Shown here piece after piece: positions 9,977-30,550 of a stretch of 64,000 bases of DNA. Source of the stretch: a virus (Duplodnaviria > Caudoviricetes). The notes beneath the pieces were generated by a model that saw only the letters and a program-made list of their open reading frames with translations, made no database searches and was not told the origin of the DNA. A program made the position numbers and the translations under genes. Where the stretch lies: IMG/VR virus record IMGVR_UViG_3300049988_000118, positions 9,989 through 73,988 of that record. One strand, written 5' to 3'. Positions within the stretch are counted from its first letter, which is position 1. Each line of letters starts with the position of its first letter.

Positions 9977-10021
9977 CTGCCTCCCTGCAGGTCCGAAATT
10001 ATAGGTGAACGAGCGAACGAA

Positions 10022-10633: not shown

Positions 10634-12518
10634 CCGCACCGTCGCCTTAGCGCTCCGCAAGGTCCGTCCCCCGCCCCGCCTGCCCCTGTCGCAATGGATC
10701 GAGGCCGGCAAGAAGAAGGGCCTGTGCCTGCCGGAGGGACTGGTCGCCGACCCCGGCCCCGTCCGTCTCTGGGCGTTCCAGCGAGAGATTGCCGACGCCA
10801 TCGGCGATCCGACCATCCCGCGGGTGACCGTCAAGAAATGCGTCCGCGTCGGCTACACCACCATCCTGGTCGGTGCGATTGCGGGCCACGTCGTCAACGA
10901 GCCGGCGCCGATCATGGTGCTGCTGCCCACCGACGACAGCTGCCGCGACTTCGTGGTGTCCGACCTCGAGCCGATCTTCGATTCGAGCGCGGTCGTTGCC
11001 GGCATCCTCGCGACAGATGCGGACGAGACCGGCCGCAACACGATGATGTACCGCCGCTTCCCCGGCGGCTCGCTCAAGATCAAGGCTGCCCGGTCGCCGC
11101 GCAACCTTCGGGCTCACACGGTCCGCGTCCTGCTGATCGACGAAGAGGATGCGATCGAGGTCACGGCGGAGGGCGACGCCCTCACGCTGGCGATCAACCG
11201 GACGCTGACCTTCTCCAACCGCAAGATCGTCCGCGGCTCGACCCCGAAGGACGAAGACACCTCGACGATCTGCCGGGAGTACGATGCCAGCGACCGCCGG
11301 ATCTATGAGATCCAGTGCGTCGAATGCGAGAAGTTCGCCGAGCCGAAATGGTCCCACATGGAGTGGGACAAGGAGAAGGACGCCCAGGGTCGGACGATCC
11401 GCCATCTGACCGAGACCGCGAAGTGGGCCTGCCCGAACTGTGGGGTGATGATCCCGGAGCGGCGCAAGGCCGAGATGGTCACGAAGGGCCGATGGCGCGC
11501 AACCCGTCCGGAGGTGAAGGGCCACGCTGGCTTCGCCCTGTCGGCTCTGATCTCGCCTCACGTCAACGCGTCCTGGTCGGAATTGGCGGCCGAGTACGTG
11601 GCGGCCTCCGGTCAGCCGGATCTGCTGCGCACCTTCCACAACACGAAGCTGGGCGAGGGCTGGTCCGAGAGCGTCGACCAGACCACCGCCGATGCGCTGG
11701 CCGACCGGGTCGAGGCCTTCGGTCTCAACATTGAGGTGCCGGACCCGAACGCGCCGGGCGGCAAGCGGATCCTGACAATTCCCGAGGCGGTCCTGCTCAT
11801 AACCGCCGGCGTCGACGTCCAGCCGGACCGCCTCGAAATCTCGATCTACGGCTGGGACCGCGATGGCGTCGCCTATGCGCTCGGCCACTTCGTCCTCTGG
11901 GGCAACACGCTGGAGGGTTTTGTCTGGCGCGAGCTCGACGAGTTGCTGCTCCAGCGCTGGGTTCACCCGTTCAGCGGCAAGATCGGCATCGAAGTTACCT
12001 GCGTCGATTCCGGCGACGGCGGCACGACGGAGGCGGTCTACGGATTCTGCTGGCCAAAGCTGAAGCGCGGAGTCCTGCCAATCAAGGGCATGGGCGGACG
12101 CCGGGCGATCATCGAAGCGTCCAAGGGCACGGTCTCGGGCGGCGCGCTCGGCGGTAAGGGCCGGCTTTGGATCGTTGGCGTCGACGAGGTGAAGCAGATC
12201 CTCCTAACCAAGTTCTCCCGGTATCCGGATCAGGTCCGGTTCTCGGAAAGCCTGCCGCTGTCGTGGTTCTCGCAGCTGACGTCCGAGCGTCGCATCGTAA
12301 AGCGCGTAGGTGGCCGACCGGTGCGGAAGTTCGAGCGGCTGAAGGGTGAGGCCGCCGAAGCGCTTGACGCCACTGTCTACGCTTTCGCCGCCCGCTACGT
12401 CCTGCCGCCGATCGATTTTGATGCACGCGAGAAGCGCCTTCGTGATCCTAGCTTTGCGCCGCTCGCGCCGACTGCGCCGCCACGTGACGTGCGTCGATCT
12501 AAGTACATGGAGCGCTGA
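10617..12518 (+). CDS. terL: Terminase large subunit, lambda GpA family
   Basis: KKCVRVGYT Walker A-like, LLIDEED Walker B, GSTP, CPNCG, TAGVDVQ.DRLE nuclease motif, EALDATVYA. Confidence 0.95.
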   Translation: MTTLLDRTVALALRKVRPPPRLPLSQWIEAGKKKGLCLPEGLVADPGPVRLWAFQREIADAIGDPTIPRVTVKKCVRVGYTTILVGAIAGHVVNEPAPIMVLLPTDDSCRDFVVSDLEPIFDSSAVVAGILATDADETGRNTMMYRRFPGGSLKIKAARSPRNLRAHTVRVLLIDEEDAIEVTAEGDALTLAINRTLTFSNRKIVRGSTPKDEDTSTICREYDASDRRIYEIQCVECEKFAEPKWSHMEWDKEKDAQGRTIRHLTETAKWACPNCGVMIPERRKAEMVTKGRWRATRPEVKGHAGFALSALISPHVNASWSELAAEYVAASGQPDLLRTFHNTKLGEGWSESVDQTTADALADRVEAFGLNIEVPDPNAPGGKRILTIPEAVLLITAGVDVQPDRLEISIYGWDRDGVAYALGHFVLWGNTLEGFVWRELDELLLQRWVHPFSGKIGIEVTCVDSGDGGTTEAVYGFCWPKLKRGVLPIKGMGGRRAIIEASKGTVSGGALGGKGRLWIVGVDEVKQILLTKFSRYPDQVRFSESLPLSWFSQLTSERRIVKRVGGRPVRKFERLKGEAAEALDATVYAFAARYVLPPIDFDAREKRLRDPSFAPLAPTAPPRDVRRSKYMER

Positions 12519-12520
12519 GC

Positions 12521-12775
12521 ATGGCCGGCACTGTGAAGACGCCGGCCGAGATCCGGGCGGACAAGCTCGCCGAGATCGAGCGCATCAACCGGAACCTCAC
12601 TCGGGGCATCAAGAAGGTCCGGGAAGAGGATCGCGAGATCGAGCACGTAGATCCGAAATACCTCATCCGCCGGCGCGACGAGCTTCTCGCCGAGACGGGC
12701 GGCGCCAACGAGACCGGGCCCGAACTAACGGCCCGCGTGCGGCAGGTCCGCATGATCGGGCGAAAGGGATACTGA
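12521..12775 (+). CDS. Head-tail joining protein (lambda gpW-like)
   Basis: Small ORF between terL and portal; TGATG coupling. Confidence 0.65.
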   Translation: MAGTVKTPAEIRADKLAEIERINRNLTRGIKKVREEDREIEHVDPKYLIRRRDELLAETGGANETGPELTARVRQVRMIGRKGY

Positions 12776-13943
12776 TGGGCCTTCTCAGCCGGATGTTCGG
12801 CGGCGCCAAGCGAGGTGCCGCGCGCGCCTTCTTCGCCCCAGGCTTCGGCTACGAGGGGGCACGCTTTTCGCGCCGGCTTCGCAGCTGGCTGCCGGAGCGC
12901 GCCAGCATCAACGCGCTGCAGGCGCAGGGCGGCGAGCTTCTCCGCGCCCGCGCCCGCCAGCTGGTGCGCGACAACGCCCTGGCCGCGTCCGCGATCGACA
13001 CGTGGGTCGGCTCCGTCGTGGGCGACGGCATCACGCCGTCTCCGACGATCGACGACAAGGCCCTGAAGACGGCCATCAAGGAGGCGTGGCTACGCTGGAC
13101 CGACGAGGCCGATGCCGACGGCCTGACGGATTTCTACGGCCTGCAGGCCCTCGTCGCCCGGTCGATGTTCACCGGTGGCGAGTGCTTCGTCCGGTTTCGG
13201 CCTCGCCGGATCGAGGACGGGTTCAGCGTTCCGCTGCAGCTTCAGATCTACGAGGCCGAGCAGCTGCCGCTGTCCTTCAACGTGCAGCGCTCGGACATCG
13301 GCAACGAGATTCGACACGGCATCGAGTTCGACCGGATCGGCCGGCGCCTCGCCTACCACTTCCTGAAGGTCCGGCCCGGCGACGGCGCCTATGCCTACGG
13401 CCTGGAGAATGGCGATCGCGTGCGCGTGGCGGCTTCCGAGGTCATGCACATCTACCGCCCCCTGGAGGCTGGACAGATCCGAGGGCAGACGCAGCTCGCC
13501 GCCGCGATGGTGCGGATGCACCTGCTCGACAGCTACGATGACGCCGAGCTCGACCGGAAGCGCGTCGCTGCGATGTTCGCAGGCTTCATCAAGAAGAACG
13601 CCATCGGCGACCCGCTCCCGGTCCCGGCCGGGTCCGACGCCTTCGGCGGTTTCGGTGGCGTGGGGGATCAGCCGCCTCCGATGGAGATCGAGCAGACCGT
13701 CGCCGACATGGAACCGGGCACGATGAACGTGCTCAACCCCGGCGAGGAGATCACGTTCTCGAACCCGGCCGACGTCGGCGGCTCCTACGAAGCCTTCATG
13801 TATCGGAACCTGCTCGCCATCGCGGCGGGGTGTGGCGTTCCCTACGCGGCCATGACCGGCGACCCGAGCAAGGGCAACTTCTCGTCCCAGCGCAGCATCG
13901 AGCTCGAATACAAGCGCCGGGTCTCGCAGTTCCAACATCAGAC
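12775..13943 (+). CDS. Portal protein, lambda family, 5' segment (interrupted by satellite)
   Basis: LRARARQLVRDN, GECFVRFR, GIEFDRIGRRLAYH, GQIRG, YAAMTGD.S..NFSS motifs. Junction at ...QFQHQT; continues at 31834. Confidence 0.95.
13934..13943 (+). repeat. attL core AACATCAGAC
   Basis: Exact 10-bp direct repeat with 31824-31833 at both portal breakpoints. Confidence 0.92.
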
Positions 13944-13979
13944 TATGTGCTTTGGGCTAAGCCCTTCGTAAATAACGAG

Positions 13980-14003
13980 AAAGCCGCTTTCGGGCGGCTT
14001 TTT
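13980..14003 (+). terminator. Intrinsic (likely bidirectional) terminator just inside attL
   Basis: AAAGCCGC-TTTCGG-GCGGCTTT-TT. Confidence 0.8.
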
Positions 14004-14128
14004 CTGTGGGCGCGCGGGTGGCCTGAGAAGTCTGCCTAAGTCGTTGAAGTCCCATGAGGACCGGCGGCGCCACGCGACATGCGCGCGACATTCGATGCGA
14101 CAACGAACGCGACAAAATCGGAGGGCCT

Positions 14129-14341
14129 ATGTCCATGCACCCTGAGCAGGATTTGCTCTACGGCGTCCCTGCCATTGCGACTTTCCTCGGCATCCGGCCA
14201 CGTCAGGCCAAGCACCGAGTTGCAACGGGCGAGATCCCCTCGTTCCGCATTGGGGAATCCATCTGCGCTCGCCGCTCAACTCTGACGGCGTGGCTTGCCG
14301 AGCGCGAGGCCGAGGCCCAGCGGAGCCGGTCCAATGCCTGA
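14129..14341 (+). CDS. Excisionase-like HTH protein
   Basis: LLYGVPAIATFLG..GEIPSFRIG.SICARRSTL..W (HTH_17/Xis pattern); GGAGG RBS; adjacent to att. Confidence 0.7.
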   Translation: MSMHPEQDLLYGVPAIATFLGIRPRQAKHRVATGEIPSFRIGESICARRSTLTAWLAEREAEAQRSRSNA

Positions 14342-14657
14342 CATCGCCAACACCAGCCTGTCCCCGGTCACGGCCAACCCGACCGCCCACCGCAACACTG
14401 ATGTCGCGCGCTTCGTCTGCCAGATCGGCGGCATCCGTCTCACGGGTGTCCGGCTGATGCGGATGCCCAACGGCGGCCACTTTGCCCAGCCGCAGTTGCG
14501 AACGAAGGGCAGGGGCACCCCGTCCGTCGGTACGACGATCACCGACCCGAACCTCATGAGCGCCATCACCTACGCGGCGCTCGCCCGCCTCTCCACGACG
14601 GACACCGACACGGCCGACGAAGGCCACAGGCACCGTGCCGTCCGCCGCCGGACTTAA
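14334..14657 (+). CDS. Satellite hypothetical protein
   Basis: ATG 14334 overlapping the xis end. Confidence 0.45.
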   Translation: MPDIANTSLSPVTANPTAHRNTDVARFVCQIGGIRLTGVRLMRMPNGGHFAQPQLRTKGRGTPSVGTTITDPNLMSAITYAALARLSTTDTDTADEGHRHRAVRRRT

Positions 14658-14946
14658 CCCCGACCGCCGAGCCGATCTCGCCGACGAGATCGCCGACCTC
14701 CGGCACCGGCTGGCCTGCATCGAGGCCGAACTAGGCTTAGGCTCGCCAGGATTGGCCCAGGACGGGCGAGACCCGTTCGCCGAGGGCCATCTCACCTTGC
14801 AGCGAGCCGCGGGCGCCTGGGGCGTCACCGACGAGGCGGCGCGGAAGAGGGCGCTTCGTCTCGCATCGCTGGGGATGGCCGAGCGGCGCCGGCCCGGCGG
14901 CTGGCGGATCTCGACAGCCGGTGTACGGTTCTATCTCGGAGGGTGA
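14635..14946 (+). CDS. Satellite hypothetical protein, possible HTH
   Basis: LTLQRAAGAWGVTDEAARKRA pattern. Confidence 0.5.
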   Translation: MPSAAGLNPDRRADLADEIADLRHRLACIEAELGLGSPGLAQDGRDPFAEGHLTLQRAAGAWGVTDEAARKRALRLASLGMAERRRPGGWRISTAGVRFYLGG

Positions 14947-14949
14947 CCC

Positions 14950-15456
14950 ATGCCGGACTATTCAGCGGAGATCGGCCGGGTGCTGGCCGAGCGCGACGGC
15001 GTGGATCCGCACGGGGACATCGCCGTGATGACCCGGGCGCTGATGAAGCGATTCCCCGGCGTCACCACCGAGATGATCTTGCGCGGTTGGGAGATCGCAC
15101 GGGAGATCATCGCCACCGACGCCAGGATGGCACCGAGCGTCCGGAAGGTGCCGGTGGTGTTCGGGGAGCCGACCTTGGCTTGGCGTTGCACGGAGCTGGA
15201 TCGGCTGTGGCTGAGCGCCAACGGCCGCGCCTACTTCATCCGCCCCGCGCTTGAAAACGAGACCTGGACCCTCGGAAAAAGCCTCCCCGCCGGCATGACC
15301 GCTCTTGCAATCGTCCGGGGCACCGATGGGTCGACGATCGCCTTCGCGTGCCGCGACCCCAGCGCGCTGACCGAAGCCTCGGACGATGCCCTTGCCGGCG
15401 TGTTCGATGACGAGATCGACGCGGCCGTCGAGCGGACCGCGCGCGGGCCGGAATGA
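14950..15456 (+). CDS. Satellite hypothetical protein
   Basis: GGAGG RBS; operon context. Confidence 0.5.
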   Translation: MPDYSAEIGRVLAERDGVDPHGDIAVMTRALMKRFPGVTTEMILRGWEIAREIIATDARMAPSVRKVPVVFGEPTLAWRCTELDRLWLSANGRAYFIRPALENETWTLGKSLPAGMTALAIVRGTDGSTIAFACRDPSALTEASDDALAGVFDDEIDAAVERTARGPE

Positions 15457-15569
15457 TGGCTCGCGCACGTCAGCGGGCAGGAGAATGGCCCGCCGGAGCT
15501 GGCGATAGGTTTTAGCCCCGGCAGGTAGCGGGTGCGGGGGAAAGCACTCTTGCGGTGATTCCGAGACAG

Positions 15570-16004
15570 CTAGACGGCCGTACCGTCGAACCACGCCAGG
15601 ACGCGTCCTTCCAGCAACCCGCGGAAGAGTTCGTAATCACTTGAGGCATATTTCGGCCCGCGACCGGAGGATCTTCCGTTGATCCATGGGTCTTCAGTGC
15701 CAATACTGTTTTCCCACAATCCAAATGCGAAGGCGGTCTGCTTGCAATTTGGGTCGGTCAACGTAACCGTTACGGTAATGCAGCCGCTTACGCCCTCGGC
15801 GCGGGCACTCGTATATTTCAGATTGCTCGTCTCTGTCGGGTCGCTCGCCGAGATAGCATCAGCCATAGCATTCAGATCATTGAAGATAAAATGATACTTC
15901 TGCATTATATGAGCTTCGAGGCCGGCGCGAGCGACTGGCTCGAATCTGTTAATGTACCGCGCAATACTTGTTCGAAACTCTGAGTAATCCCGCTCGTTAG
16001 CCAT
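15570..16004 (-). CDS. Satellite cargo, unknown function (AT-richer)
   Basis: GAAGGAG RBS before ATG 16004; counter-oriented. Confidence 0.6.
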   Translation of the reverse strand: MANERDYSEFRTSIARYINRFEPVARAGLEAHIMQKYHFIFNDLNAMADAISASDPTETSNLKYTSARAEGVSGCITVTVTLTDPNCKQTAFAFGLWENSIGTEDPWINGRSSGRGPKYASSDYELFRGLLEGRVLAWFDGTAV

Positions 16005-16070
16005 ACTCACTCCTTCGGCGCCGGCACCCATACCGCGCTCTGCTTCCCATTCATATCGGAGCATCTCAGC

Positions 16071-16469
16071 ATGCCGAAGTCGAGACGCCGCCCGCAAGCG
16101 GCCGATTCCGCGCGCCTGCCCGTCGTCCCCGAGGACTTCGAGGCGGTGACTGAGGCGGATCGCCGGTTCTTCCTACGGTATCCGCAGCGGTCCTATCGGG
16201 TTCGGCATACAAGCCGGGCAGAGATAGACCAGGGCGCACGCGCCGGCAGTGCGTTCGAGGCGCCTTACGCCAAGTTCCGCTGGTTCACCGCGATCCGACA
16301 GGTGGCGCCGGGGTGTCGGCTGCGTGTGTATCTCCAGGCGCCCGCGCTGTGCGAGACGGACATACCGGAAGCACTGGCGGCCGATATCTACCATCGGTTC
16401 GAGGGGCAAAGCGCTCGCGACACGACAATTCTTATGATGGATGCCCTGAGAAAGGCGGGCGCCCTATGA
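16071..16469 (+). CDS. Satellite hypothetical protein preceding primase
   Basis: GGAG RBS; ATGA coupling to primase. Confidence 0.55.
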   Translation: MPKSRRRPQAADSARLPVVPEDFEAVTEADRRFFLRYPQRSYRVRHTSRAEIDQGARAGSAFEAPYAKFRWFTAIRQVAPGCRLRVYLQAPALCETDIPEALAADIYHRFEGQSARDTTILMMDALRKAGAL

Positions 16470-18763
16470 CGACCGCCGCCGCGGGTGAGCGCCCGCCGAA
16501 ACCCGCCTATCAGCCCTTCACCGGCCTGCCGGACTTGCCGGCGCTGTGCGAGATGCGCGCCCGGCCTCAGTGGCTTGCCTGGGACTACGTGTGGCGCCCG
16601 GAAAAGGCGAAGTGGGACAAGCCCCCAATGAACGCCCGGACGGGCGGGGCCGGCTCGTCAACCGACGCCTCGACGTGGTCCACCTATGACCAGGCCGCGG
16701 CGCGTGCCTCTCGTGAGGGGCTGCCAGGCGTCGGCTACGTCCTGTCGCCGGAGGTCGAGGACAGCGGTGTCGACCTCGACAAGTGCCGCGATCCCGAGAC
16801 GGGTATACTTCAGGCATGGGCGCAGGTGGCCGTCGATTTCGCCGAGACCTACACCGAGGTGTCGCCGTCCGGTCGCGGGCTGCGCTTCTTCGTCAAGGGG
16901 TTAGTCGACGGTCGCAAGATCGATGCGGCCCAAGTGGAGATCTACACCAAGGGCCGATACCTGACCGTCACCGGGCAGCATATCCCTGGCACGCCCACGG
17001 AGATTCGGGAGGCGCCCCGGCTCATCGCCTACCTTCAGGAGCGCGCCGACCAGTTCCGAGAGGTCGAGCGTGCCGCCGCTGATCGCGCCCGAGAGAACGA
17101 GCGCAAGAAGGCCGAGAAGCATGCCGCCCGCGAGCCCCGCCCTGAGCCGGGCCCGACAGTCAGCGAGCGGGCCTCGGCGAGCGCTCGGCAGCGTGGTCCG
17201 CGCGAGGGCGGCGACTTCTGGCGAACCGTCAACGACCGCGCCCTTGCGAACCTTGGCGCATGGGTCCCGAGCGTGTTCCCCGGCGCCCGTTGGCAGGCTG
17301 GCACAGGCGCCTACCGCGTTGAGCAAAGCGCGCTTGGCGAGGGCTACGAGGAAGACCTGTCCCTGCACCCGGACGGCATTCGGGACTTTGGCAGCGGTGA
17401 CATGGGAGACTCGCGCGACGGCGCGCGGACGCCGATCGACGTGGTGGAAGCCTACCTGCCGGCGAGCGACGCCGCGGCGGCGGCCATGTGGCTGTGCGAT
17501 CGGCTCGGCATCCGGCCCGAGGACATCGGGTGGCGTGGCGGGCGTAACGAGGGTGCGGAGCGCCCGCGGTACGAGGGGCCCCAATCCGATCCGGGCCCCA
17601 CCGCCGAGTCGCCGCCGGCATTCCGGGCGCGTCCGTTCGTGTGGAAGGACCCGCACACCCTGCCGATGCGCGAATGGCTTCTCGGCCGGCACCTGATCCG
17701 AAAATACACGAGCGCCACCGTCTCGCCGGGTGGCCTGGGCAAGTCGTCCATCATCATCGTGGACGCGCTGGCCCTCGTGACGGGTCGCAACCTCATCGGA
17801 CACCAGCCGCATGGACGTCACCGGGCGATGATCTGGAACGGCGAAGACCCGATGGACGAATTGCAGAAGCGCATCACGGCGGCCTGCCTCTATTTCGAGA
17901 TCGACCGGACCGAGATCGAGGGGCGCTTGTTCGTCAACTCCGGACGCGACGACCCGATCACGGTGGCGAGAATGCACAGGGGTGACGTGGTGATTGCCGT
18001 GCCGGTGGTGGACGCTCTTAAGGCGACCATCTTGGCGAACGAGATCGACGTCGTGTTCGTGGACCCGTTCGTGTCCTGCCATGAGGTGACGGAGAACGAC
18101 AACAACGCCATTGATCGTGTGGCGAAGCTGTGGGGCCGGATCGCAGGCGAAACGAATTGCAGCATCGAGCTCGTCCACCATTCGCGGAAAACCGGCGGCG
18201 CCGAGATCACCGTCGAGGACGCGCGCGGCGCCGTGGCTTTGCTCGCCGCGGTTCGCTCGGCCCGGACCCTCAACGGCATGCAAAGGGACGAGGCTGAGAA
18301 GTGGGGTATTACGGATCGCGGGCTGTATTTCCGAGTGGACAACGGCAAGGCAAATCTCGCCCCGCCGCCGTCTGAAGGCTCGGCGTGGTTCAAGAAGCAA
18401 TCCGTTTCCCTCGGCAACGGCGGCAGCGTTGGGAGCATCGTGCTCGACGGTGACAGCGTTGGCGTGGTGGCAGCGTGGGAGCCGCCGAACCCAATGGATG
18501 GCGTGTCAGTCGATGATCTGAGAAAAGCTCAGGCAGCGACAAGGGAAGGCCGCTGGCGCGAGAACTCACAGGCTCGCGACTGGATCGGCAAGCCGATCGC
18601 CTACGCCCTCAGGCTCGACGCAGACAACAAGGCCGACCGCGCCCGCATCAAAGGGATGCTCGCCGTCTGGATGAAGACTGGCATGTTCGTGGCCGTCACC
18701 GGCAAGGACGACAAGGCGATGGACCGGACCTTCATTGAGGTTGGCGAGAGCGCAGTCGACTGA
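16466..18763 (+). CDS. Satellite primase-polymerase fused to AAA_25/RepA-like SF4 helicase
   Basis: Prim-pol N-terminus homologous to 2228-4630; Walker A SPGGLGKSS, VFVDPF, LVHHSRK, DARGA. Confidence 0.85.
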   Translation: MTTAAAGERPPKPAYQPFTGLPDLPALCEMRARPQWLAWDYVWRPEKAKWDKPPMNARTGGAGSSTDASTWSTYDQAAARASREGLPGVGYVLSPEVEDSGVDLDKCRDPETGILQAWAQVAVDFAETYTEVSPSGRGLRFFVKGLVDGRKIDAAQVEIYTKGRYLTVTGQHIPGTPTEIREAPRLIAYLQERADQFREVERAAADRARENERKKAEKHAAREPRPEPGPTVSERASASARQRGPREGGDFWRTVNDRALANLGAWVPSVFPGARWQAGTGAYRVEQSALGEGYEEDLSLHPDGIRDFGSGDMGDSRDGARTPIDVVEAYLPASDAAAAAMWLCDRLGIRPEDIGWRGGRNEGAERPRYEGPQSDPGPTAESPPAFRARPFVWKDPHTLPMREWLLGRHLIRKYTSATVSPGGLGKSSIIIVDALALVTGRNLIGHQPHGRHRAMIWNGEDPMDELQKRITAACLYFEIDRTEIEGRLFVNSGRDDPITVARMHRGDVVIAVPVVDALKATILANEIDVVFVDPFVSCHEVTENDNNAIDRVAKLWGRIAGETNCSIELVHHSRKTGGAEITVEDARGAVALLAAVRSARTLNGMQRDEAEKWGITDRGLYFRVDNGKANLAPPPSEGSAWFKKQSVSLGNGGSVGSIVLDGDSVGVVAAWEPPNPMDGVSVDDLRKAQAATREGRWRENSQARDWIGKPIAYALRLDADNKADRARIKGMLAVWMKTGMFVAVTGKDDKAMDRTFIEVGESAVD

Positions 18764-18765
18764 GC

Positions 18766-18891
18766 TTCCACACCCGAGGTTCGGGCCTTCGCGCGTCCAC
18801 ACCCCACCCCACACCCCTATAGGGGTGGTGGTGTGGAATGGAGTTTCCACACTTCCACACCATTCCACACCACGCCTCGCAAGGTGTGGGA
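18766..18891. repeat. Iteron cluster, putative satellite origin
   Basis: TTCCACAC at 18766, 18845, 18853, 18863; inverted GTGTGGAA at 18831; palindrome ACCCCTATAGGGGT at 18813-18826; directly after the primase stop. Confidence 0.75.
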
Positions 18892-19008
18892 GGCGACGAC
18901 ACGGCATGCTGTCACGATGGCCCTAATGCACGTGGTCGGGGACGATGCGGCTTGATGCATCCCGGGCGACCTGCGGTGTCACCCGGGATACCTGGTTCGT
19001 GAGCGGCG

Positions 19009-19383
19009 CTAGACCCGATTGAACTCGCGTGCGTGCAAGTTGCTACCCGCGCGCACCATCGTCACGTTGAGCCGCTTGAAGCACGCCAGGAAGTCGGCGA
19101 GCGACAGGGGAACGTCGACAGCGACCAGATCGATCGGCCCGTCCTGAGGCATGGCCTTCGTGGCCTCGTCGTAGCTGTTGCCCAGGGCATAGTGGGCCGT
19201 CAGCTTAGTGGACCCGTCTACCTCGCTCTGCCAGAGGTCGAAGGCCACGAGGAAGCGGCCGGCAGGGGCAAGCCCGCGGGCAGCGAGCGTCGCCCCCAAG
19301 TCATCGACGGCGGCATTGTCGGCCGCGGCCGAGCCCTCCCAATCGCCGTACTGCGTCTCAGCCTGCAAGCGCTCCATGACCAT
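19009..19383 (-). CDS. Satellite cargo, unknown function
   Basis: GGAG RBS before ATG 19383; counter-oriented between ori and cos. Confidence 0.55.
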   Translation of the reverse strand: MVMERLQAETQYGDWEGSAAADNAAVDDLGATLAARGLAPAGRFLVAFDLWQSEVDGSTKLTAHYALGNSYDEATKAMPQDGPIDLVAVDVPLSLADFLACFKRLNVTMVRAGSNLHAREFNRV

Positions 19384-19465
19384 GCTCCGTACAACCGTGG
19401 GCGGACGGCATACGACCAAGCGGAGGCCGGGCCTAGGGGCCAAGCGGCGATCGTCACGGAGACCC

Positions 19466-19586
19466 GCACGTTCCTCGGTGGGTAGGCCCTCCGACCCCGC
19501 CCCGCATGCTGCGCCTCACTACCGCAGCGCACAATGGGTCCTCCGGAGACACCCCACCCCTCTGCGGGCAGAGTTGCTCCCGACTT
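19466..19586 (+). repeat. Satellite copy of helper cos region (121 bp identical)
   Basis: Identical to 9856-9976; upstream of satellite terS. Confidence 0.9.
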
Positions 19587-19668
19587 TCGGCTCTCTGCAA
19601 GTTTGCCAAAAATAGGGGGGGCCGCTTCTTTTCGGTCCCTCGAAGCCTCGCTCCCGATGGAGAAACCG

Positions 19669-20187
19669 ATGAACGAGACCGCTTCGAACGCCGAGATGAT
19701 GGAGCTGTTCGGGGTCTCAGACCGGACCGTCGCGAAGCACGCCGCCAGCGGGATATTCGTGCGTGTTGGCCGCGGCCAGTACGACGTGAAGGCCTCGATC
19801 CGCACCTACGCTGAGCACCTCCGCAGCGCCGCATCCGGGCGGCCCAGCACCAACGAAGAGCTGCGAGCCGAGAAGATTCGACTGACCGCCGCCCAAGCTG
19901 ACCGCGCAGAGATGGACCGGGACGCCGAGGCCGAGGTGATGGTCAACGTGAAGGAATTCGACGACGCGTGGGGCCATGAAATCGTCAAGCTTCGGCAGGG
20001 GTTTCTCGGCTTGGCAAATAAGATCGCGGAGGCTCACCCCCACTTCACGCGCCACGAGATCCACACCATCGACGAAGTGATCCGCGCGATGATGGAGCGG
20101 GTTGCCGACGATGCCGATACACGCCTGGAAATCGCTCAGGCCAAAGAAGACAAGGGCGGAAAGTCGCGGCGCCGGTCCCGCCGCTGA
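19669..20187 (+). CDS. Satellite small terminase / Rpp-like (Nu1 family)
   Basis: MMELFGVSDRTV..AASG HTH; EELRAEKIRLTAAQADRAEM coiled coil typical of Nu1; GGAG RBS. Confidence 0.8.
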   Translation: MNETASNAEMMELFGVSDRTVAKHAASGIFVRVGRGQYDVKASIRTYAEHLRSAASGRPSTNEELRAEKIRLTAAQADRAEMDRDAEAEVMVNVKEFDDAWGHEIVKLRQGFLGLANKIAEAHPHFTRHEIHTIDEVIRAMMERVADDADTRLEIAQAKEDKGGKSRRRSRR

Positions 20188-20207
20188 ACGCGTAATTCGA
20201 TTTAATG

Positions 20208-20247
20208 GTTGGTTTTGGTTGGTTTTCCCCGGTCCAAAGTTGGTTTT
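20208..20247 (+). promoter_or_regulatory. Three helically phased direct repeats GTTGGTTTT
   Basis: Copies at 20208, 20218 and 20239 in the only AT-rich gap before the satellite morphogenesis operon. Confidence 0.5.
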
Positions 20248-20288
20248 CTCTCGTTGAATTAGGCCCTCGTCCGCCGGACACTTCCGGC

Positions 20289-20636
20289 ATGACAACCGCC
20301 AGCTTCCCCCGCTTCAGCACAACGCTGGACCACGAGACGGCCCGCGCCGTCACCCTCGCCGCCGCCGAACGGATGCAGAGTCGCGCCGACTTCATTCGTG
20401 ACGCGGTGGCCCACGAACTGAGCGTCCGACAGGCCGCCGCCGACGCCGTGCGATCCGAGGTCGAGCGCCAGGGAGCCGCCGCCCGCCGCCTCACCGCCGC
20501 ACTGGATCGGGGGCCGGGTGCAACCTCCCGTCTCACCGCCTCGCGCGTCGCCGCGCTCGCCCGGCCGGCCGCGCACACCATCCCCAACATCTCCACCCTC
20601 GACGCGGCCGAAGCCGCCGGAAAGGCATGCCCATGA
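20289..20636 (+). CDS. Ribbon-helix-helix-like regulator
   Basis: RFSTTLD beta-strand followed by two helices (..SRADFIRDAV). Confidence 0.5.
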   Translation: MTTASFPRFSTTLDHETARAVTLAAAERMQSRADFIRDAVAHELSVRQAAADAVRSEVERQGAAARRLTAALDRGPGATSRLTASRVAALARPAAHTIPNISTLDAAEAAGKACP

Positions 20637-21718
20637 AATCGCCGACGAAGCTGCTCAAGGCCACCGCCACGGCGTTCGGCCTTGCCCGTAAGGCCACCGA
20701 CGCCGAGGTCATCGAGGCTGCAATCGCGGAGGCACGCACGGCCATTGCGGAGGGCGAGCGCGACGGGGCCGAGGCCCAAGCGCGCTACGACGAATCCCTG
20801 CTCGCCGATGACGGCGACCCGGCCTTGATGCTCAACGCGATCCAGGCCGCCAAGATCAAGCGGGACCGCGGCGAGGCCCAGGTGGCCACCCTCACCGTGC
20901 GCCTGAACGATGTGCGGGAGGCCAGCGAGCAAGAACGCCGCGGCGCGATCTATCGGGATGCGGAGGCAAAAGCCGAAGCCGCCCGCGTTGCCCTGGTTCA
21001 GGAATACCCCGCCATCGCCCGACAGATGCATGGGCTACTCCGGCTTCTGGCCGAAGCCGAGATCAGGGTAGCGCAGGCGAACGCGGACCTACCGCACGGG
21101 GCCGCGCCCATCGCTTCGCCCGAGTGGCAGGTTCGGTATCCCGGGGCCAACCTGCCGCCGCTGCCGGCCCCAACGATGGTGAAGCTTTGGGCGCCCATGG
21201 GTGGAAGCGAGCCCGTGCCGGAGGAAGACCAGCAACGGGTTCGCCCGATGCCCGGTCGAGCGGAGTGGGTCGGCGCCCTCCGGCGTGATGACGGCTCCAC
21301 GCTGGAGTGTCATCGCCGTACCTTTCGGAAGTCGCTGGAATACGAGAAGCCCCACGGGGATTGGGGCACCAATCTGGCCGGGTCCGTGTGCCTGCCGGCC
21401 CTGTATCCCTTCACCCCGCCCGTGTGGCCGCAGAACCTCATCAACGGCAAGACATTCGACCGATCTGCTGATGTTGCGCTGTCGACCTTGGATGATGTTG
21501 AGCCCCTGAGCGCGGCAGTCTGGCGACGAGCGGAGGCGATTTTGAAGGTCGTCACCCGCTTCCGGGAGGAGGGCCGCCCCCTCAACGTAGTGGACGACGG
21601 AGCACCGCGCGTACCGCGCCACCAGCCTGTCACGGATCTCGCCCTTCGCCACCAGCCTGTCACGGATCTCGCCCTTTACGACGAGGATGACGGCGAAGCG
21701 GAGGGCGAGGCAGCATGA
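20633..21718 (+). CDS. Satellite protein with long helical/coiled-coil N-terminus, unknown function
   Basis: Ala/Glu/Arg-rich N-terminal half; ATGA coupling both sides. Confidence 0.65.
   Translation: MKSPTKLLKATATAFGLARKATDAEVIEAAIAEARTAIAEGERDGAEAQARYDESLLADDGDPALMLNAIQAAKIKRDRGEAQVATLTVRLNDVREASEQERRGAIYRDAEAKAEAARVALVQEYPAIARQMHGLLRLLAEAEIRVAQANADLPHGAAPIASPEWQVRYPGANLPPLPAPTMVKLWAPMGGSEPVPEEDQQRVRPMPGRAEWVGALRRDDGSTLECHRRTFRKSLEYEKPHGDWGTNLAGSVCLPALYPFTPPVWPQNLINGKTFDRSADVALSTLDDVEPLSAAVWRRAEAILKVVTRFREEGRPLNVVDDGAPRVPRHQPVTDLALRHQPVTDLALYDEDDGEAEGEAA
21617..21676 (+). repeat. 30-bp perfect tandem duplication (RHQPVTDLAL x2)
   Basis: CGCCACCAGCCTGTCACGGATCTCGCCCTT twice. Confidence 0.95.
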
Positions 21719-21978
21719 TGCGCGTCGTGCCGAAAGTCGATGGCGCCGAAGACGAACGGCGGGCGGCCAAGCGCCAACGGCTCACCGAAACCCTGGCCCT
21801 GCCGGAAGCGCAGGGCAGGGGCAACCTCCTCCCCTTCGCCCTGGCGTGCCGTTTCGATCTTCCCATGGCCCGCGTGAAGCAAGCCCTGGTCGACGCACCC
21901 GAGATGACCGACCCGAACGAAGTTGCCGAGTGGGCGGAGGCATACCCCGTCCGCTCAAAACTGGAGATCGTGAAATGA
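21715..21978 (+). CDS. Small protein resembling the lambda Nu3/gpC scaffold motif
   Basis: LALPEAQGR...L..AP pattern; coupled to the protease gene. Confidence 0.45.
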   Translation: MMRVVPKVDGAEDERRAAKRQRLTETLALPEAQGRGNLLPFALACRFDLPMARVKQALVDAPEMTDPNEVAEWAEAYPVRSKLEIVK

Positions 21979-23231
21979 ACGACTACGATGGCCGCCGCCT
22001 GATCTGCGAAGGTGCCTTGGTCCTCTATGGTGACGTGGGCGAGGCCGGATGGGCGGACGTCGATGGCTTCACCGCCTCCGATGTGCTGTTCGCGCTCGCG
22101 GAGATCGGCGCAGACCGTGACGTGACGGTGCGGATCAACTCTGGCGGCGGCAATGCCTTCGAGGGCCTCGCCATCCACGCGATCCTCTCGGCGCACCGCG
22201 GCAAGATCACCACCGTAGTCGAGGGCATCGCCGCGTCCGCCGCCTCCATCATCGCGATGGCGGGGAAGGACCGGATCGTCGCGCCCGGGTCGCTCATGAT
22301 GATCCACGACCCGTCGGGCCTGACGGTCGGCACGGCGGACGATCACGACGACACCGCCGCCATGCTGCGCACCCTGTCGGATGCGCTTGCGACCGTCTAC
22401 GCGACCGCCACCGGCCGAGCGAAGGCCGTCATCCTGGAGGAGATGAAGGCCGAGACGTGGCTCGACGCCGACGAATCCCTTGCCCGGCGGTACGCCACGG
22501 CGATCGGAACCGCCCCCGCCTCGACCGCCATGCTCCCGTTTCCGTTCGGAGCCTATGCGAAGGCACCCGCCCACCTCGTCGCCCTTGCGGAAACGAAGGG
22601 GTGGAGCGCCCGCCAGTTCACCGCCTCGCACGCCCTGGGCAAGTCGCGTTCCGAGCGCCACGCCGCTGCACCGCGCTCCTTCGATAAGGCGGCCACCGCG
22701 TCGGCGCCTGACGCCATCGCCCAGACGTGCGCTCTTGCCGGGTGCCCGGAGAGGGCCGCCGAGTTCATTGCGGCTGGGGCGTCGTCGGCCGACGTAGCGA
22801 AGCAGCTGCTAGCGGAAGCGGTGACCGGCACGGCCACCCAGGGCGCGAGCCAGAACCGTCTGTCTCGCGCCGATTCGGCGTCGGTCGCGACCCTGTGTCT
22901 CGACGCGAGCATTCCCGAGATGACGCCGACCATCCTCGCCCGAGCCACCACCGTGGATCAGGCCAAGGCGCTGATCCAGACCGGCACCGAAATGAAGGAC
23001 GTCGTGACCCTGGCGCGCCGGCACTGCCCGAGCGTGCCCGAGGATTTGGCGGTCACAGCGTTCGCCGCCGGAAAGACGGTCAAGCAGGTCCGCGACGAGG
23101 CCGTGAACCTGATGGCGGAAGAGGGCGACCGAACCGAAGTCCAGGGGAGCCGCCACCCCGCCGCGATCAATTCCGGCCCCGGGGCGGCGAAGCGGAACAT
23201 GCTGGCCCAACTCGCGCGGGCCACCCGCTGA
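21975..23231 (+). CDS. Satellite ClpP-like head maturation protease with scaffold extension
   Basis: INSGGG, GIAASAAS, MMIHDP, ETWLDA; paralog of 32215-33423. Confidence 0.9.
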   Translation: MNDYDGRRLICEGALVLYGDVGEAGWADVDGFTASDVLFALAEIGADRDVTVRINSGGGNAFEGLAIHAILSAHRGKITTVVEGIAASAASIIAMAGKDRIVAPGSLMMIHDPSGLTVGTADDHDDTAAMLRTLSDALATVYATATGRAKAVILEEMKAETWLDADESLARRYATAIGTAPASTAMLPFPFGAYAKAPAHLVALAETKGWSARQFTASHALGKSRSERHAAAPRSFDKAATASAPDAIAQTCALAGCPERAAEFIAAGASSADVAKQLLAEAVTGTATQGASQNRLSRADSASVATLCLDASIPEMTPTILARATTVDQAKALIQTGTEMKDVVTLARRHCPSVPEDLAVTAFAAGKTVKQVRDEAVNLMAEEGDRTEVQGSRHPAAINSGPGAAKRNMLAQLARATR

Positions 23232-23422
23232 TGGCCCTGGCAACCTCCGCCCTCCGCGTCCGCATCGTGGACACCCCGTCGGCCGGCGCTCTCCTCGACC
23301 TCGCCGACCGCTTGCGCCGACTCGCCCCGTCGCCCCGCGATCCGGAGCGCTTCCACGTCGAGAAGTCCGAGATTGAGGGCGAACTGCGCCGGCTCGCCCT
23401 GCCGCCCGCCCGGAGATCCTAA
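23231..23422 (+). CDS. Small satellite hypothetical protein (63 aa)
   Basis: TGATG coupling; LRRLAPSPRDPERFHVEKSEI. Confidence 0.55.
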   Translation: MALATSALRVRIVDTPSAGALLDLADRLRRLAPSPRDPERFHVEKSEIEGELRRLALPPARRS

Positions 23423-23425
23423 ACA

Positions 23426-23955
23426 ATGCCCAAAAGCTCCACTCGGAAGCGCGCCCCTGCCGCGCGGTCCCCCGCCCCGGACCTCCCGCCGCCGCGCTTC
23501 GTCATGCCGGTGCCGGATCATACCGTTCCGCTGATCCACCCGGTCGAGTACGCCGGCCGAACCTTCGCCAGCATCACCCGTCGACGCCCGTCTAGCGCCG
23601 TGCTGGGCCGGTGGTTCGAGCAGTTCACCGAGGGCGCGGCGGTCCCGGGCGACACGAATCTCAACGTGCCGATTTTCGTCGACGAGGCCGGCGACCTCGT
23701 ACCGGATGCGGTGCTCGGCTTTCTCGACGACGATGACCGGCAGGTCGTGTTCGAGGATGCTGACCGTTTTTTTCCCAAGCGGCTCGCGGTTGCCCTGGAA
23801 GCTCTGACGCAGGACTCAGCCCCTTCGTCTGGCGAACCTGCCGAGCCGACATCATCCGCTTGATAGGGGGCTCGCGGGCTGAGCTCGACGCCATGACCTG
23901 GGGCGAGTTCACCCGCGAGTGGTTCGAAGCCAAACGCGTTTCTGAGGGCCGCTGA
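23426..23955 (+). CDS. Satellite tail assembly chaperone (gpE-like, 23426-23863) with -1 frameshift extension to 23955
   Basis: Homologous to 48451-48834; T7 slippery run at 23767-23773; -1 frame open to TGA 23953-23955. Confidence 0.85.
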
Positions 23956-23956
23956 G

Positions 23957-26647
23957 ATGTCGACACGCACCGCAACCCTGATCGCCAACTTGGTCGATCA
24001 GGTCTCAGGTCCGGCCAAGGGCATGGCCGGCGCCCTGAAAAGCACCGCATCCGCCCTCGATGCACTGAAGGCCAAGGCCGGCAAGATCGACGCCTTCAAG
24101 CAGGCGAGCAAGTCGCTGGACGACGCCGCGCAGAAGTTCAGGCTGGCGCAGCAGAACGTGCGCAAGATCAAGGCCGAGATGGAGGCCGGCGGCGACGGCG
24201 CCAAAAAGCTCGGGAGCGCGCTGAAGGGCGCCGAGCGCAACGCCGATGCGGCGCGGGCCGCGTTCAAGAATCAGGGGCAGGAGGTCCGCGCGTTGCGCAC
24301 CGCCCTGGAGCAGGCCGGCGTGCCGCTCAACGCGCTCGCCGCGCACGAGCGCCAGTTGCAGACCCAGATCAACCACACCACCGAGGCGCTCAAGCGACGG
24401 AAGAAGGCGCTTGCGGATGTTGGCGCCGGGGCGCCGGCGAGCCGGATGGGGCCAGCCGCAGGCGGGCACGGGCCTCAAGCAGGGCGCGGGGGCGGTGGCA
24501 CGGGCGCCGCCGGGAGCGCCGTAGTGGGCGCCGGCGTGGCGCGCTTCGGCGTGGCAGCGGCCGGAATCGGTGGGGGTGCCTACATCATCGGCGATCAGAT
24601 CCGCCGGGCTGCGAAGTCGTCGATAGATTTCGAGCGCAGCATGATCGAGGTCGGCAAGGCCACCGACGCATCAGGGGCCGATCTCGAAAAATACTCCGAG
24701 GGCATCCTGGCGCTGGCCCGCGCCACCGGCAAGACGAAGGAAGACCTCGCCTCGATGCTCTCCTCGGCGGGCTTTGCCGGCCGCCCGAAGGAGGAGCTAA
24801 TGAACTTCACCGAGTACGCGGCGAAAGCGACCGTGGCTTGGGGCACGAGCGCCGAAGACACCGGCCAGGCGTTGGCCGAGATCGGCAACATCTACGACGC
24901 GAATCAGAAGCGCATCGAGGAGATCGGCGACGCGATCAACACGATGGCGGACAGCTCGGCATCGAAGGAATCCGACCTACTCGACTTCATGCGTCGGGCG
25001 GGTGCCTCGTCGAAGCAGGCCGGCATCTCAGCCGAGCATATGCTGGCGTTCGGCGCCTCGATGAAGGAAGTGGGCGTCCGGACCGACGTGGCCGCCACCG
25101 GCTTCGAGGCACTCCTGAACGTGATGAAGCTCGGCGAGGAGTTTTCGAAGAAAGCAGGCGAAGGTCTGAAGGATCTCGGCGTCAACTCCACCAAGATGCG
25201 CAAGGCGTTCGTCGCCAAGCCGGTCGAGACGATGCTTGGCCTGCTGGAAAAGATCAACAAGGTCGCGGACCCGCTCAAGAAAGCGGAGATTATGACCAAC
25301 CTTTTTGGCAAGGAATATCAGGACGACATCGCCAAGATGCTCAACGCCTTGCCGAAGGTGAACAAGTACATCGGCATCATGAGCGATCAGGCGAAGATTG
25401 CCGCCGGTGGCGTCCGGTTCCAGTTCGGTCAGAACCTCGACAAGGACGTGTCGAAGATCGACCGGGCCACGCAATCCATCGACGTTCTCTACAAGCGCAT
25501 CGGCGACCCGATCAAGATCCAGATCGGCGGCATCTCCGAGCAGGTCAATACGCTCGTCGACAGCCTGGAAAAGGGCGACACGATCCTTCAGCGCCTGGTG
25601 AAGCGCCTCAACGGCGGCGAAGCTGGCAAGCCGATCGAGCTGCCCGAAATGAATGGCGAAGGCGGCCTGGAAAAATGGTTCGAGGAAAAGCTGCCCTGGC
25701 TGAGCGGCAAGAAGTGGAACGACGAGGTCGACAAGCGGATCGGCAAGACCGGCGCTGACACGGACCGGATGAACCGCGAGGACGCCGACGGGCGGCGCGC
25801 CGCGGCCGAGCGGGAGGTGCTCGACCGCCCGGCCGACATCGAGACGAAGATCCAGCGCCAGCGCCGCGCACAGGATCAGGCCCGGCGGGAAGCGGTCGGG
25901 GCTACGGGGATGCGGCGCTCGCTGGCGGTGGAGCAGATCGGCAAGTCCGACGCCGAGGTGAAGCGCTTGGAGGGCGAGCTTGCCAAGGCTTGGGAGGCGA
26001 TCGGAGCCCTTCGCGCTCAGCACAAGCGGGACAAGGGGGCGTTCAGCGTCGACGGTCCGGCTGCGAAGGACGTGGAGACCATCGGCCCGGGCCGCTTCGG
26101 GCTTGGCCTACACGGCACGGACGTGCTGCCCTCGCGCCGGGTGCCGCTACCGCCGCCGCGACCCGCAGGGCTGACGCCCGGCGCAGAAATCACCATGCCG
26201 GAGATCAAGGTCGAGGTGGACACCTCCGGCTTCGATGAGGCCAGCCGCAAGGCCGATGAACTCGGTGCGCGGACCATCGCGCCGAAGGGCGACGGCGCCG
26301 GCTTGGCCCCCATCGGGACAGCGGCCGACGAGGCCAAGGCGAAGCTCTCTGAAATCAATGCCACCACCGTCACACCGAAGGGAGATGCCGCAGGGCTCGC
26401 GCCGCTCGGGACGGCCGCCGACGAAGCCAAGGCAAAGCTTTCGGCCCTCGCCGGGGTGAGCGTCGCGCCGACCGTCGACGCCTCATCCATCGCGGCGGCA
26501 GAAACCGCAGTAGATCGCCTCCTGGCGAAAATCGCCCGGGTCGGCCCAGCCCTGAAAGGCGCCAACGGGGCTGTTGCCTCGGGTGTCGTCCGTTCCGGCA
26601 ACGTCGCCCAGCGCCTCCAGAACACTTTCACCGACAAGGGGATGTGA
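23957..26647 (+). CDS. Satellite tail tape measure protein (896 aa)
   Basis: TP901-type core (SIDFERSMIEVGK...); N- and C-termini match helper TMP; follows chaperone. Confidence 0.92.
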   Translation: MSTRTATLIANLVDQVSGPAKGMAGALKSTASALDALKAKAGKIDAFKQASKSLDDAAQKFRLAQQNVRKIKAEMEAGGDGAKKLGSALKGAERNADAARAAFKNQGQEVRALRTALEQAGVPLNALAAHERQLQTQINHTTEALKRRKKALADVGAGAPASRMGPAAGGHGPQAGRGGGGTGAAGSAVVGAGVARFGVAAAGIGGGAYIIGDQIRRAAKSSIDFERSMIEVGKATDASGADLEKYSEGILALARATGKTKEDLASMLSSAGFAGRPKEELMNFTEYAAKATVAWGTSAEDTGQALAEIGNIYDANQKRIEEIGDAINTMADSSASKESDLLDFMRRAGASSKQAGISAEHMLAFGASMKEVGVRTDVAATGFEALLNVMKLGEEFSKKAGEGLKDLGVNSTKMRKAFVAKPVETMLGLLEKINKVADPLKKAEIMTNLFGKEYQDDIAKMLNALPKVNKYIGIMSDQAKIAAGGVRFQFGQNLDKDVSKIDRATQSIDVLYKRIGDPIKIQIGGISEQVNTLVDSLEKGDTILQRLVKRLNGGEAGKPIELPEMNGEGGLEKWFEEKLPWLSGKKWNDEVDKRIGKTGADTDRMNREDADGRRAAAEREVLDRPADIETKIQRQRRAQDQARREAVGATGMRRSLAVEQIGKSDAEVKRLEGELAKAWEAIGALRAQHKRDKGAFSVDGPAAKDVETIGPGRFGLGLHGTDVLPSRRVPLPPPRPAGLTPGAEITMPEIKVEVDTSGFDEASRKADELGARTIAPKGDGAGLAPIGTAADEAKAKLSEINATTVTPKGDAAGLAPLGTAADEAKAKLSALAGVSVAPTVDASSIAAAETAVDRLLAKIARVGPALKGANGAVASGVVRSGNVAQRLQNTFTDKGM

Positions 26648-26705
26648 CGACGGCAGTCGGCCGCGCAGAGACGGTCAGTAAATGGCTTGTGACGATCTGG
26701 GCAGC

Positions 26706-27050
26706 CTACCGCGCGTCCACGATGCGACAGGACGCGGCGCCGAGAGTTTTCCCGTCCGCCTCGGCGATGCCGATGAAGTTCCGGCCTGTGACGGTAGCGC
26801 CCGGTTTGATGTTGCGGATAACCGAGGCCGCTTCACCCACGGGAGACCCGCCCGGACTTGCTACGGAGCAACTGACCTCGGCGACCTCCACCCGCGCCGA
26901 GCCGGCATTCCTCACCTGAATCACGGTCTCGACGGTCTCGCCGATGGCGCGCGGGCGTCCGGCCGTGACCGAGAGGTCATCCGCCATCCCCGCCGCGTGT
27001 GCGGCGTACGATGACACGATCAGAGCGAGGGCGAGCAGGGCAGGGCGCAT
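26706..27050 (-). CDS. Secreted protein (FxLYD-like Ig fold)
   Basis: Signal peptide MRPALLALALIVSSYAAHA; V.N.G..V...V.C...G pattern. Confidence 0.55.
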   Translation of the reverse strand: MRPALLALALIVSSYAAHAAGMADDLSVTAGRPRAIGETVETVIQVRNAGSARVEVAEVSCSVASPGGSPVGEAASVIRNIKPGATVTGRNFIGIAEADGKTLGAASCRIVDAR

Positions 27051-27093
27051 GCCGGCAAGATAGCCGCCGGGGTGCAGTTGTCGAGACTAGCCC

Positions 27094-27246
27094 TCAACCG
27101 CGTACGGCATGCTGTTCACCCGCCGGGGCAGGCCGCTCGGCATGTGGATGCTTCCGGTTGAATCGGTACTTCAGCAGCGCGAAAAAACCGCCGCCTCCGA
27201 CCACTGCCAAGCCGAGAGCGGACCATAGGAGCAGGGTAGGTGTCAC
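27094..27246 (-). CDS. 50-aa single-TM protein (not in ORF track)
   Basis: GAGGAG RBS + GTG; MTPTLLLWSALGLAVVGGGGFFALLKYRFNRKHPH... Confidence 0.55.
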   Translation of the reverse strand: MTPTLLLWSALGLAVVGGGGFFALLKYRFNRKHPHAERPAPAGEQHAVRG

Positions 27247-27249
27247 GGA

Positions 27250-27621
27250 TCACTCCTCTGATTGCATCACAAGGAAATTTAGAACGTACGGGAAGATATG
27301 GAAGCCCAAAGAAATAACACACCATTGAACCGCGTTTCCGTCCAGAACCGCATCCGCGTCCCGAACGAACGGCACGATCGCCGCTGCCCCTAGAATGCCG
27401 GCCGCGAGAGTGTTGCAGAGCGCGTTGAAGTGCTTGAGGCACTCATTGATGCGCTTGGCGTCAAGCTTCCGCAATGCTGGGTTATCAGACGATGGCGGCG
27501 GTTTTCCTGAACCAAAACTTGGAGAATTTATTTTTCGAGCCAGTGCCTCTGCTTCACCTTCAGCGAAGCTGTCAATCGATCGAAGGGGTGTTGTGCTTTT
27601 CTTAATGGCGCCAGTCATCAA
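27250..27621 (-). CDS. Membrane protein, two TM segments (cargo)
   Basis: Hydrophobic segments in C-terminal half; AT-rich. Confidence 0.5.
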   Translation of the reverse strand: MMTGAIKKSTTPLRSIDSFAEGEAEALARKINSPSFGSGKPPPSSDNPALRKLDAKRINECLKHFNALCNTLAAGILGAAAIVPFVRDADAVLDGNAVQWCVISLGFHIFPYVLNFLVMQSEE

Positions 27622-28395: not shown

Positions 28396-28457
28396 CCTGA
28401 GAAGGCTCGAGGCCCCGGCCCTGAGAAGCCGGTTCGTACCTGTGAGAACCGAGATCC

Positions 28458-30549: not shown

Positions 30550-30550
30550 G

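Follow-up and report, generated by a model that had tools for sequence, protein, structure and literature searches.

Identical copies of a 121-bp lambda cos-like repeat lie upstream of two terS genes, one of them in a putative satellite embedded in the phage portal gene

The window is the whole stretch of DNA that was analyzed, 64,000 nucleotides in length, and consists of positions 9,989 to 73,988 of the 73,988-bp IMG/VR virus record IMGVR_UViG_3300049988_000118 (Caudoviricetes). All coordinates are positions in the window. Profile matches show a phage with a lambda-type head module and a P2-type baseplate and tail. A tail-completion gene (9042–9875, +; phrog_27, E-value = 2e-14) precedes the genes for a 203 aa small terminase subunit, TerS (10022–10633, +; phrog_57, E-value = 3e-20, with a weak HTH_17 match), and a large subunit of the gpA family, TerL (10617–12518, +; GpA_ATPase and GpA_nuclease, E-value ~1e-73). 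The head module continues with a lambda-family portal, a ClpP-type protease (32215–33423), a gpD-like protein (33426–33809) and a gpE-like capsid protein (33813–34859). A six-frame search of the whole record with the gpA family gives a single TerL match. The phage group has a GC content of 67%. The closest TerL sequences of cultured phages are about 30–31% identical, and the enterobacterial gpA proteins stand at about 30%. The phage is best explained as temperate.

Several other features of the phage were recorded. Positions 7608–8411 encode a NusG-like protein, a phage NusG paralogue. In the early region a low-GC (0.44) gene at 5146–6384 (−) encodes a protein with an HTH and an M78 peptidase (ImmA/IrrE-like). 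A 1230-aa fibre-like gene at 40746–44438 contains repeats of 126–129 nt encoding Asp-box/BNR-like motifs. An SNase-like nuclease gene (47010–47942, −), together with a low-GC stretch at about 48000–48900, is found inserted between the tail tube and tape-measure genes.

The portal gene is split by a 17,890-bp insertion (13944–31833) that shows a 10-bp direct repeat at both ends. The attL core (13934–13943, +) lies inside the portal gene. The attR core (31824–31833, +) is where the portal frame resumes, running on to 32200. The two portal parts are 12775–13971 and 31826–32200; the first stops at 13971 after nine foreign codons, and integration leaves a truncated portal of 398 aa. Joined, the parts give a 511-aa frame, and the alignment of this frame with the intact portal of a related phage (L005) is gapless. 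The empty site is found in three related phages with TerL sequences 79–89% identical, where homology jumps from 13941 straight to 31835.

The insertion carries its own set of genes. These encode an AlpA/excisionase-like HTH protein (14129–14341; HTH_17, phrog_66), a primase-helicase (16313–18763, +; AAA_25, E-value = 5e-32, and primase and helicase PHROG families), a 176 aa TerS (19657–20187, +; phrog_57, E-value = 3e-25, with a weak Phage_Nu1 match) and a tyrosine integrase (30551–31753, +; Phage_integrase, E-value = 3e-26). An RHH protein, a 363-aa protein of unknown function and a Rha/ANT protein are also encoded. The order is alpA, replication, late genes, Rha/ANT and int, and the reading frames for integrase, primase and TerS are unbroken. 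The late-type cargo includes a TAC homologue and a ClpP protease-scaffold protein 45% identical to that of the phage. It also includes a tape-measure homologue (23957–26647) which has only the first ~30 and the last ~90 residues in common with the phage tape-measure protein (48936–51842); the last 51 nt of the two genes are 88% identical. A perfect 30-bp tandem duplication (21617–21676) is present at the 3′ end of the 363-aa open reading frame, immediately ahead of the protease-scaffold gene. A search for a sigma-70-like promoter of the insertion operon gave none.

Thus the insertion displays PICI-like features: an integrase, an AlpA-like regulator, its own replication module and att repeats. 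No second gpA-type TerL was found in the six-frame search of the record, and profile searches gave no capsid or portal family on the open reading frames of the insert. Because there is one gpA-type TerL in the record and the insert has this gene content, the insert is read as a putative satellite-like element embedded in a presumed helper phage. The original prediction had assigned these helper and satellite roles, and the assignment agrees with the flanking 10-bp repeat, the three empty-site relatives and the single TerL. No close relatives of the satellite integrase or the satellite TerS were found in IMG/VR, and a search of the GTDB species genomes with the integrase gave a 26% partial match and nothing closer.

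A 121-bp sequence is present once in the helper (9856–9976, +) and once in the satellite (19466–19586, +), and pairwise comparison shows that the two are identical base for base. BLAST with the repeat as query yields these two copies and no more in the full record of 73,988 bp. An exact 121-mer cannot have arisen by chance in 64 kb. The helper copy consists of the last 20 nt of the tail-completion gene with its stop codon, a 50-nt spacer, the heptamer GGGTCCT, a 23-nt spacer and a conserved block. In the satellite copy, situated within the insertion, the 20 bases that match the end of the tail-completion gene do not code for protein, and the adjacent gene runs in the opposite direction. Each copy is followed directly by terS, with a gap of 46 nt to 10022 in the helper and 70 nt to 19657 in the satellite. 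The site is upstream of a Nu1-type TerS and a gpA-type TerL in the helper, and upstream of TerS alone in the satellite. The repeat finder shows a weak match continuing 16 nt further to the left.

The exact identity of the copies (121/121 bp), their position directly upstream of terS and the succession of GGGTCCT, 17 nt and a dyad had all been noted in the original prediction and hold for both copies. The heptamer is found at 9926–9932 and 19536–19542 (+), and the dyad (6+2+6) at 9950–9963 and 19560–19573, 17 nt after the heptamer. The prediction that the sequences diverge immediately downstream is right as to divergence and wrong as to its abruptness. Identity ends 13 nt past the dyad and is followed by about 25 nt at ~70% similarity, an element conserved in 14/14 family members, after which similarity stops.

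The heptamer is that of lambda cosQ. In the lambda record it is found at 48473–48479, 23 nt before the left cohesive end, and the 12-mer located 23 nt after the heptamer in the window shares its first 4 bases, and 6/12 overall, with the lambda cohesive end. The lambda-like cosQ-cosN geometry that had been proposed is supported, both in the heptamer and in the 23-nt spacing. The 121-bp repeat is best read as the core (cosQ and cosN) of a putative lambda-type cohesive-end site, and we infer that TerL would cut at the cosN-like block. The nick placements given by +17, by +23 and by the symmetry center differ by a few nt.

Pattern scans added nine distinct loci of phages and three of satellite type (L016, L019 and L023). 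With the window pair included, the resulting 14-sequence alignment holds 10 phages and 4 satellite-type loci. The heptamer and 4 further bases form an 11-nt cosQ block that is invariant in 14/14 sequences; spacer and flanks are variable. The cosN-like block, the presumed nick-site region (helper 9954–9972, satellite 19564–19582; +), is invariant at 18 of its 19 positions across the 10 phages and 4 satellite-type loci. Spacing from heptamer to invariant block is 23 nt in six sequences (the window pair, L004, L016, L019 and L023) and 22 nt in eight phages. The block contains a symmetric CGGG/CCCG pair flanking 10 nt, and the same frame is seen in phages Arya and R20L. The dyad taken as a cosN feature in the original prediction is present, with its inner 4 bp found in 11/14 sequences, but the full 6-bp arms are specific to the window pair. 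Since the outer bases differ among relatives in the alignment, the 6-bp dyad was rejected as the defining feature of cosN. Past the cosN-like block there is a semi-conserved segment (helper 9973–9995, satellite 19583–19605; +), partly conserved in 14/14 sequences, which shows phage-type and satellite-type variants. It is positionally comparable to I2, for which a role is described in lambda (PMC4669245).

The heptamer also appears in very distant phages whose TerL is about 30% identical to that of the window. In the deposited records its distance to the right end is 23 nt for Vibrio phage R20L and 17 nt for Enterobacter phage Arya, and Xanthomonas phage M29 has it too. It is absent from the last 200 nt of the circular record of Bas97, the fourth distant phage examined. 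A scan of 401 sampled Alphaproteobacteria genomes for the cos pattern gave no match, and none of the related metagenome contigs examined ends at the cos site. Four contigs of related phages (L017, L018, L022 and L024) break 80–190 nt from cos; these breaks probably reflect assembly-graph branching at the shared cos/TerS start and not physical ends. In two other contigs (L010:779–4097 and L015:2084–5529) cos and TerS, and in L010 part of TerL as well, are joined directly to homologues of the tail-gene region at 52.0–53.6 kb of the window. These look like deletion derivatives that retain cos and TerS.

In lambda-type systems cosN and the highly conserved cosQ function in termination, and cosB together with TerS gives initiation specificity (PMC4669245). 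The cosB candidates in the window, which are defined by conservation alone, differ between helper and satellite. The phage-type candidate (9996–10021, +) has an A/T tract and, after it, a motif that is conserved in 10/10 phages of the alignment. The satellite-type candidate (19606–19656, +) is an A-tract followed by a G-run; it is unlike the phage motif, and a similar G-run is present in L023 and L016, so that three satellite loci are of this type. Over the 45 nt past the core, the helper is 82–87% identical to six of its nine phage relatives and 69% identical to the other three, compared with 56% to the satellite and a median of 64% for all pairs. The putative cosB side is divergent, as had been proposed.

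The two TerS proteins show a parallel pattern. They have unrelated N-terminal DNA-binding ends and show 42% identity over the last 50 residues. Short TerS sequences like that of the satellite form a large family, with 2,166 representatives at an E-value of 1e-10 or better. The fold model (pLDDT 83) has a Nu1/MerR-like N-terminal winged helix, and a fold search with this domain gave weak matches (E-values 0.08–0.25) to TerS, lambda Nu1, a TerS chain of an Rpp complex and Xis/MerR winged-helix domains. A sequence search of the PDB with either TerS gave no match. The TerS of satellite-type L023 has the same short architecture and a C-terminus 64% identical to phage TerS. In L019, also of satellite type, both the TerS N-terminus and the cosB motif are phage-like; in the window satellite and L023 the N-terminus is of a different kind and goes with the G-run element. 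L016 has the G-run DNA, and no TerS is identifiable on its short contig. That specificity is set by TerS and cosB had been put forward in the original prediction; the parts that sequences can address are in agreement, as the N-termini are unrelated, the C-termini alike and the cosB candidates different.

Identity between the two copies goes beyond what is conserved in the family. Over the 70 nt upstream of the heptamer, helper and satellite are 100% identical, and any other pair in the alignment has a median of 61% and a maximum of 83%. Over the 51-nt core they are again 100% identical, against a median of 82%. Family-wide conservation covers approximately 50 bp of the repeat and the other 70 bp is otherwise unconserved. 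Since only about 50 bp appears conserved by function and all 121 bp is identical, the identity points to a recent conversion patch. It is best explained by a recent gene conversion, presumably between the same-orientation copies 9.6 kb apart on one molecule. Recent capture or gene conversion had been predicted; a recent exchange fits the 70-nt comparison, but a first capture of cos does not, as the satellite lineage already had its own cos.

The direction of conversion was most likely from phage to satellite, over a pre-existing satellite cos, as suggested by phage-like bases upstream and a satellite-type right flank. The bases just upstream of the heptamer are up to 73% like those of phage relatives and 53–60% like satellite types, and to the right of the repeat the satellite carries the variant common to other satellite-type loci. 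The end of the helper tail-completion gene also aligns loosely with the gene ends of relatives. The C-terminus of the tail-completion protein is aberrant when compared with nine relatives, starting exactly at the repeat boundary; given this, conversion from satellite to phage may be considered, but is less likely.

A more general idea is that embedding in cis might keep the cosQ/cosN of a satellite identical to that of its current helper through intramolecular conversion, with TerS and cosB staying private. This is put forward tentatively, and we rather doubt it at present, with the pattern known from one helper/satellite pair. If true, it would give a simple mechanism by which a parasite could track the packaging signal of its host. 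If general, helper-embedded satellites should show sharply bounded cos patches of ~100% identity and free chromosomal satellites should be without them.

Taken together, the element is likely to be a cos-type, helper-embedded satellite that redirects the TerL of its helper by means of its own TerS and cosB. As proposed from these sequences, the satellite would excise and then replicate with its own primase-helicase. Its TerS would bind the private cosB through the divergent winged-helix N-terminus and recruit the sole helper TerL through the C-terminus that resembles that of helper TerS. The helper TerL would then nick the shared cosN, and packaging would end at the next usable cosQ/cosN. As long as the satellite is integrated, the composite exceeds normal length by 17.9 kb and has two like-oriented cos sites separated by 9.6 kb. 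Because of the truncated portal, the two cos sites and the 17.9 kb of excess length, excision should precede helper packaging as well, and precise excision would restore the 511-aa portal frame. Three satellite units amount to 53.7 kb and the phage DNA of the record to no more than 56.1 kb, and small-capsid monomers and full-capsid trimers are therefore both conceivable. For EcCICFT073, the proposed packaging mode involves the skipping of two cos sites (PMC6092414).

Other explanations of the repeat were weighed. The cos could be genuine and the satellite packaged by helper TerS through the partly conserved downstream segment, the satellite TerS serving mainly to interfere, by TerL titration or mixed TerS oligomers in the manner of Rpp. 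Its C-terminal likeness to helper TerS would permit competition for TerL or mixed oligomers, and Rpp of the E. coli PICIs does act by binding phage TerS (PMC9026076). However, the satellite lacks the phage-type cosB motif that is invariant in 10 phages, and the satellite-type loci match the type of TerS with the type of downstream DNA, so that we give this explanation about a one-in-ten standing and regard it as unlikely. We consider it slightly less probable again that the repeat serves chiefly as regulatory DNA common to both operons, for example as a late promoter or as a site where the NusG paralogue loads, by which the satellite operon fires with the helper late genes, the resemblance to cos being secondary. 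Both copies do head late-type operons, the helper encodes the NusG-like protein at 7608–8411, and the satellite operon requires a promoter of its own, given that the gene preceding the satellite copy runs the other way. Yet no promoter-like or convincing terminator-like site was found at either copy. The 70 nt upstream of the heptamer is unconserved among phages, where the gap from gene to heptamer ranges from 36 to 1172 nt, and the conserved blocks are those that match cosQ/cosN of lambda, Arya and R20L.

It is also improbable, and more so than the regulatory explanation, that the satellite copy is a functionless recombination scar in a decaying element or in a defective prophage no longer packaged. 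The atypical cargo, including tape-measure and protease-scaffold genes, would be compatible with decay. Against it, the satellite integrase, primase and TerS frames are open throughout, and three other satellite-type loci keep cosQ/cosN blocks of their own, with TerS directly downstream in L019 and L023; retention of these separate versions points to selection in that lineage. Finally, the record is a linear IMG/VR contig and several related metagenome contigs break near cos, as might be seen if the duplication or the nesting were an assembly artefact, a chimeric join at the shared repeat. But the gene order at each copy is that of independent relatives (tail-completion, cos, TerS and TerL in phages; primase, cos, TerS, TAC and TMP in L019), and neither a 10-bp target duplication nor a portal frame restored without gaps is expected from a mis-join. 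Misassembly was rejected on this synteny and att/portal-frame evidence, and its probability is very low indeed. Redirection of helper TerL by the satellite's own TerS and cosB is the reading preferred here.

On this preferred reading, PICI cos mimicry and the helper-embedded lifestyle would be extended to a group of high-GC phages which combine a lambda-type head with a P2-type tail and lack cultured relatives. Helper-identical cosQ/cosN, when combined with a Nu1-like satellite TerS and a private cosB candidate, would offer a natural system for dissecting packaging specificity by cos sub-site and TerS domain. The lambda cosQ heptamer and spacing appear conserved across very distant phages with gpA terminases, far beyond the lambda group, and this may be useful for predicting cos ends in uncultured phage genomes.

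Cos mimicry by satellites is a known strategy, and the claim made here is the modest one that it is seen in a new phage group. P4 uses the cos of its helper P2 and is about one third of the helper length. P4 integrates in the chromosome, unlike the window satellite. P4 is not known to carry a terminase subunit, and P2 has a terminase outside the gpA family. The differences from known cases, also of modest weight, are the phage group, the integrase, the gene order, the satellite's own TerS and the sharply bounded patch of 100% identity.

E. coli PICIs keep the cosQ and cosN of the helper and have a different cosB (PMC9026076, PMC6092414). The EcCICFT073-type PICIs (PICI-A, -B, -C and -G, with lambda/phi80-type helpers) are similar to the window satellite in having near-identical cosQ/cosN, matching spacing and a foreign cosB. 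They also place cos as in the phage, with cos followed by terS, and helper TerL makes the cut, which in the window is presumed from the sequence (PMC6092414, PMC9026076). However, these PICIs have no TerS and use Rpp, which heterodimerises with phage TerS, whereas the window element has a full TerS homologue with a presumed TerL-side C-terminus. No Rpp was recognized in the window satellite. The phages differ as well: compared with the E. coli PICI helpers, the window phage group has a GC content of 67% and a TerL about 30% identical to enterobacterial gpA proteins.

Helper-embedded PICIs (HE-PICIs), found in helper late genes, were described by Tommasini, Mageeney and Williams in 2023 (PMC10111431). 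As in the window, they lie inside a late gene of the helper in the same orientation as the gene, and the portal (Phage_portal_2) is among their 14–15 target sites. They often carry late genes captured from helpers; the window satellite likewise carries protease-scaffold, TAC and TMP genes, as do the "elongated" PICIs. The survey followed one integrase clade, and restriction to Enterobacterales is stated for the non-embedded fis PICIs (PMC10111431). The window integrase has no close relative in IMG/VR or the GTDB species genomes, and it is situated at the far end from alpA, unlike the HE-PICI integrases. The HE-PICI zone order is int-alpA, Bro, replication and late. Circular permutation does not bring the window satellite into this order, as its Rha/ANT gene separates the late zone from int. 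In the type pair 11capE/50icd, 258 bp at 90% identity is common at the cos position, whereas the window patch is 100% identical and sharply bounded; 11capE is described as lacking terS, and the window satellite has its own (PMC10111431).

SaPIs, as summarized in PMC6092414, offer a further comparison. The TerS of SaPI1 and SaPIbov1 redirects helper TerL to satellite DNA, as is proposed here, but it does so at pac sites and with headful packaging, unlike the cos site of the window. SaPIbov5 carries the helper cos and is described there as having no TerS, whereas the window satellite combines the two, a cos core identical to that of its presumed helper and a TerS of its own (PMC6092414).
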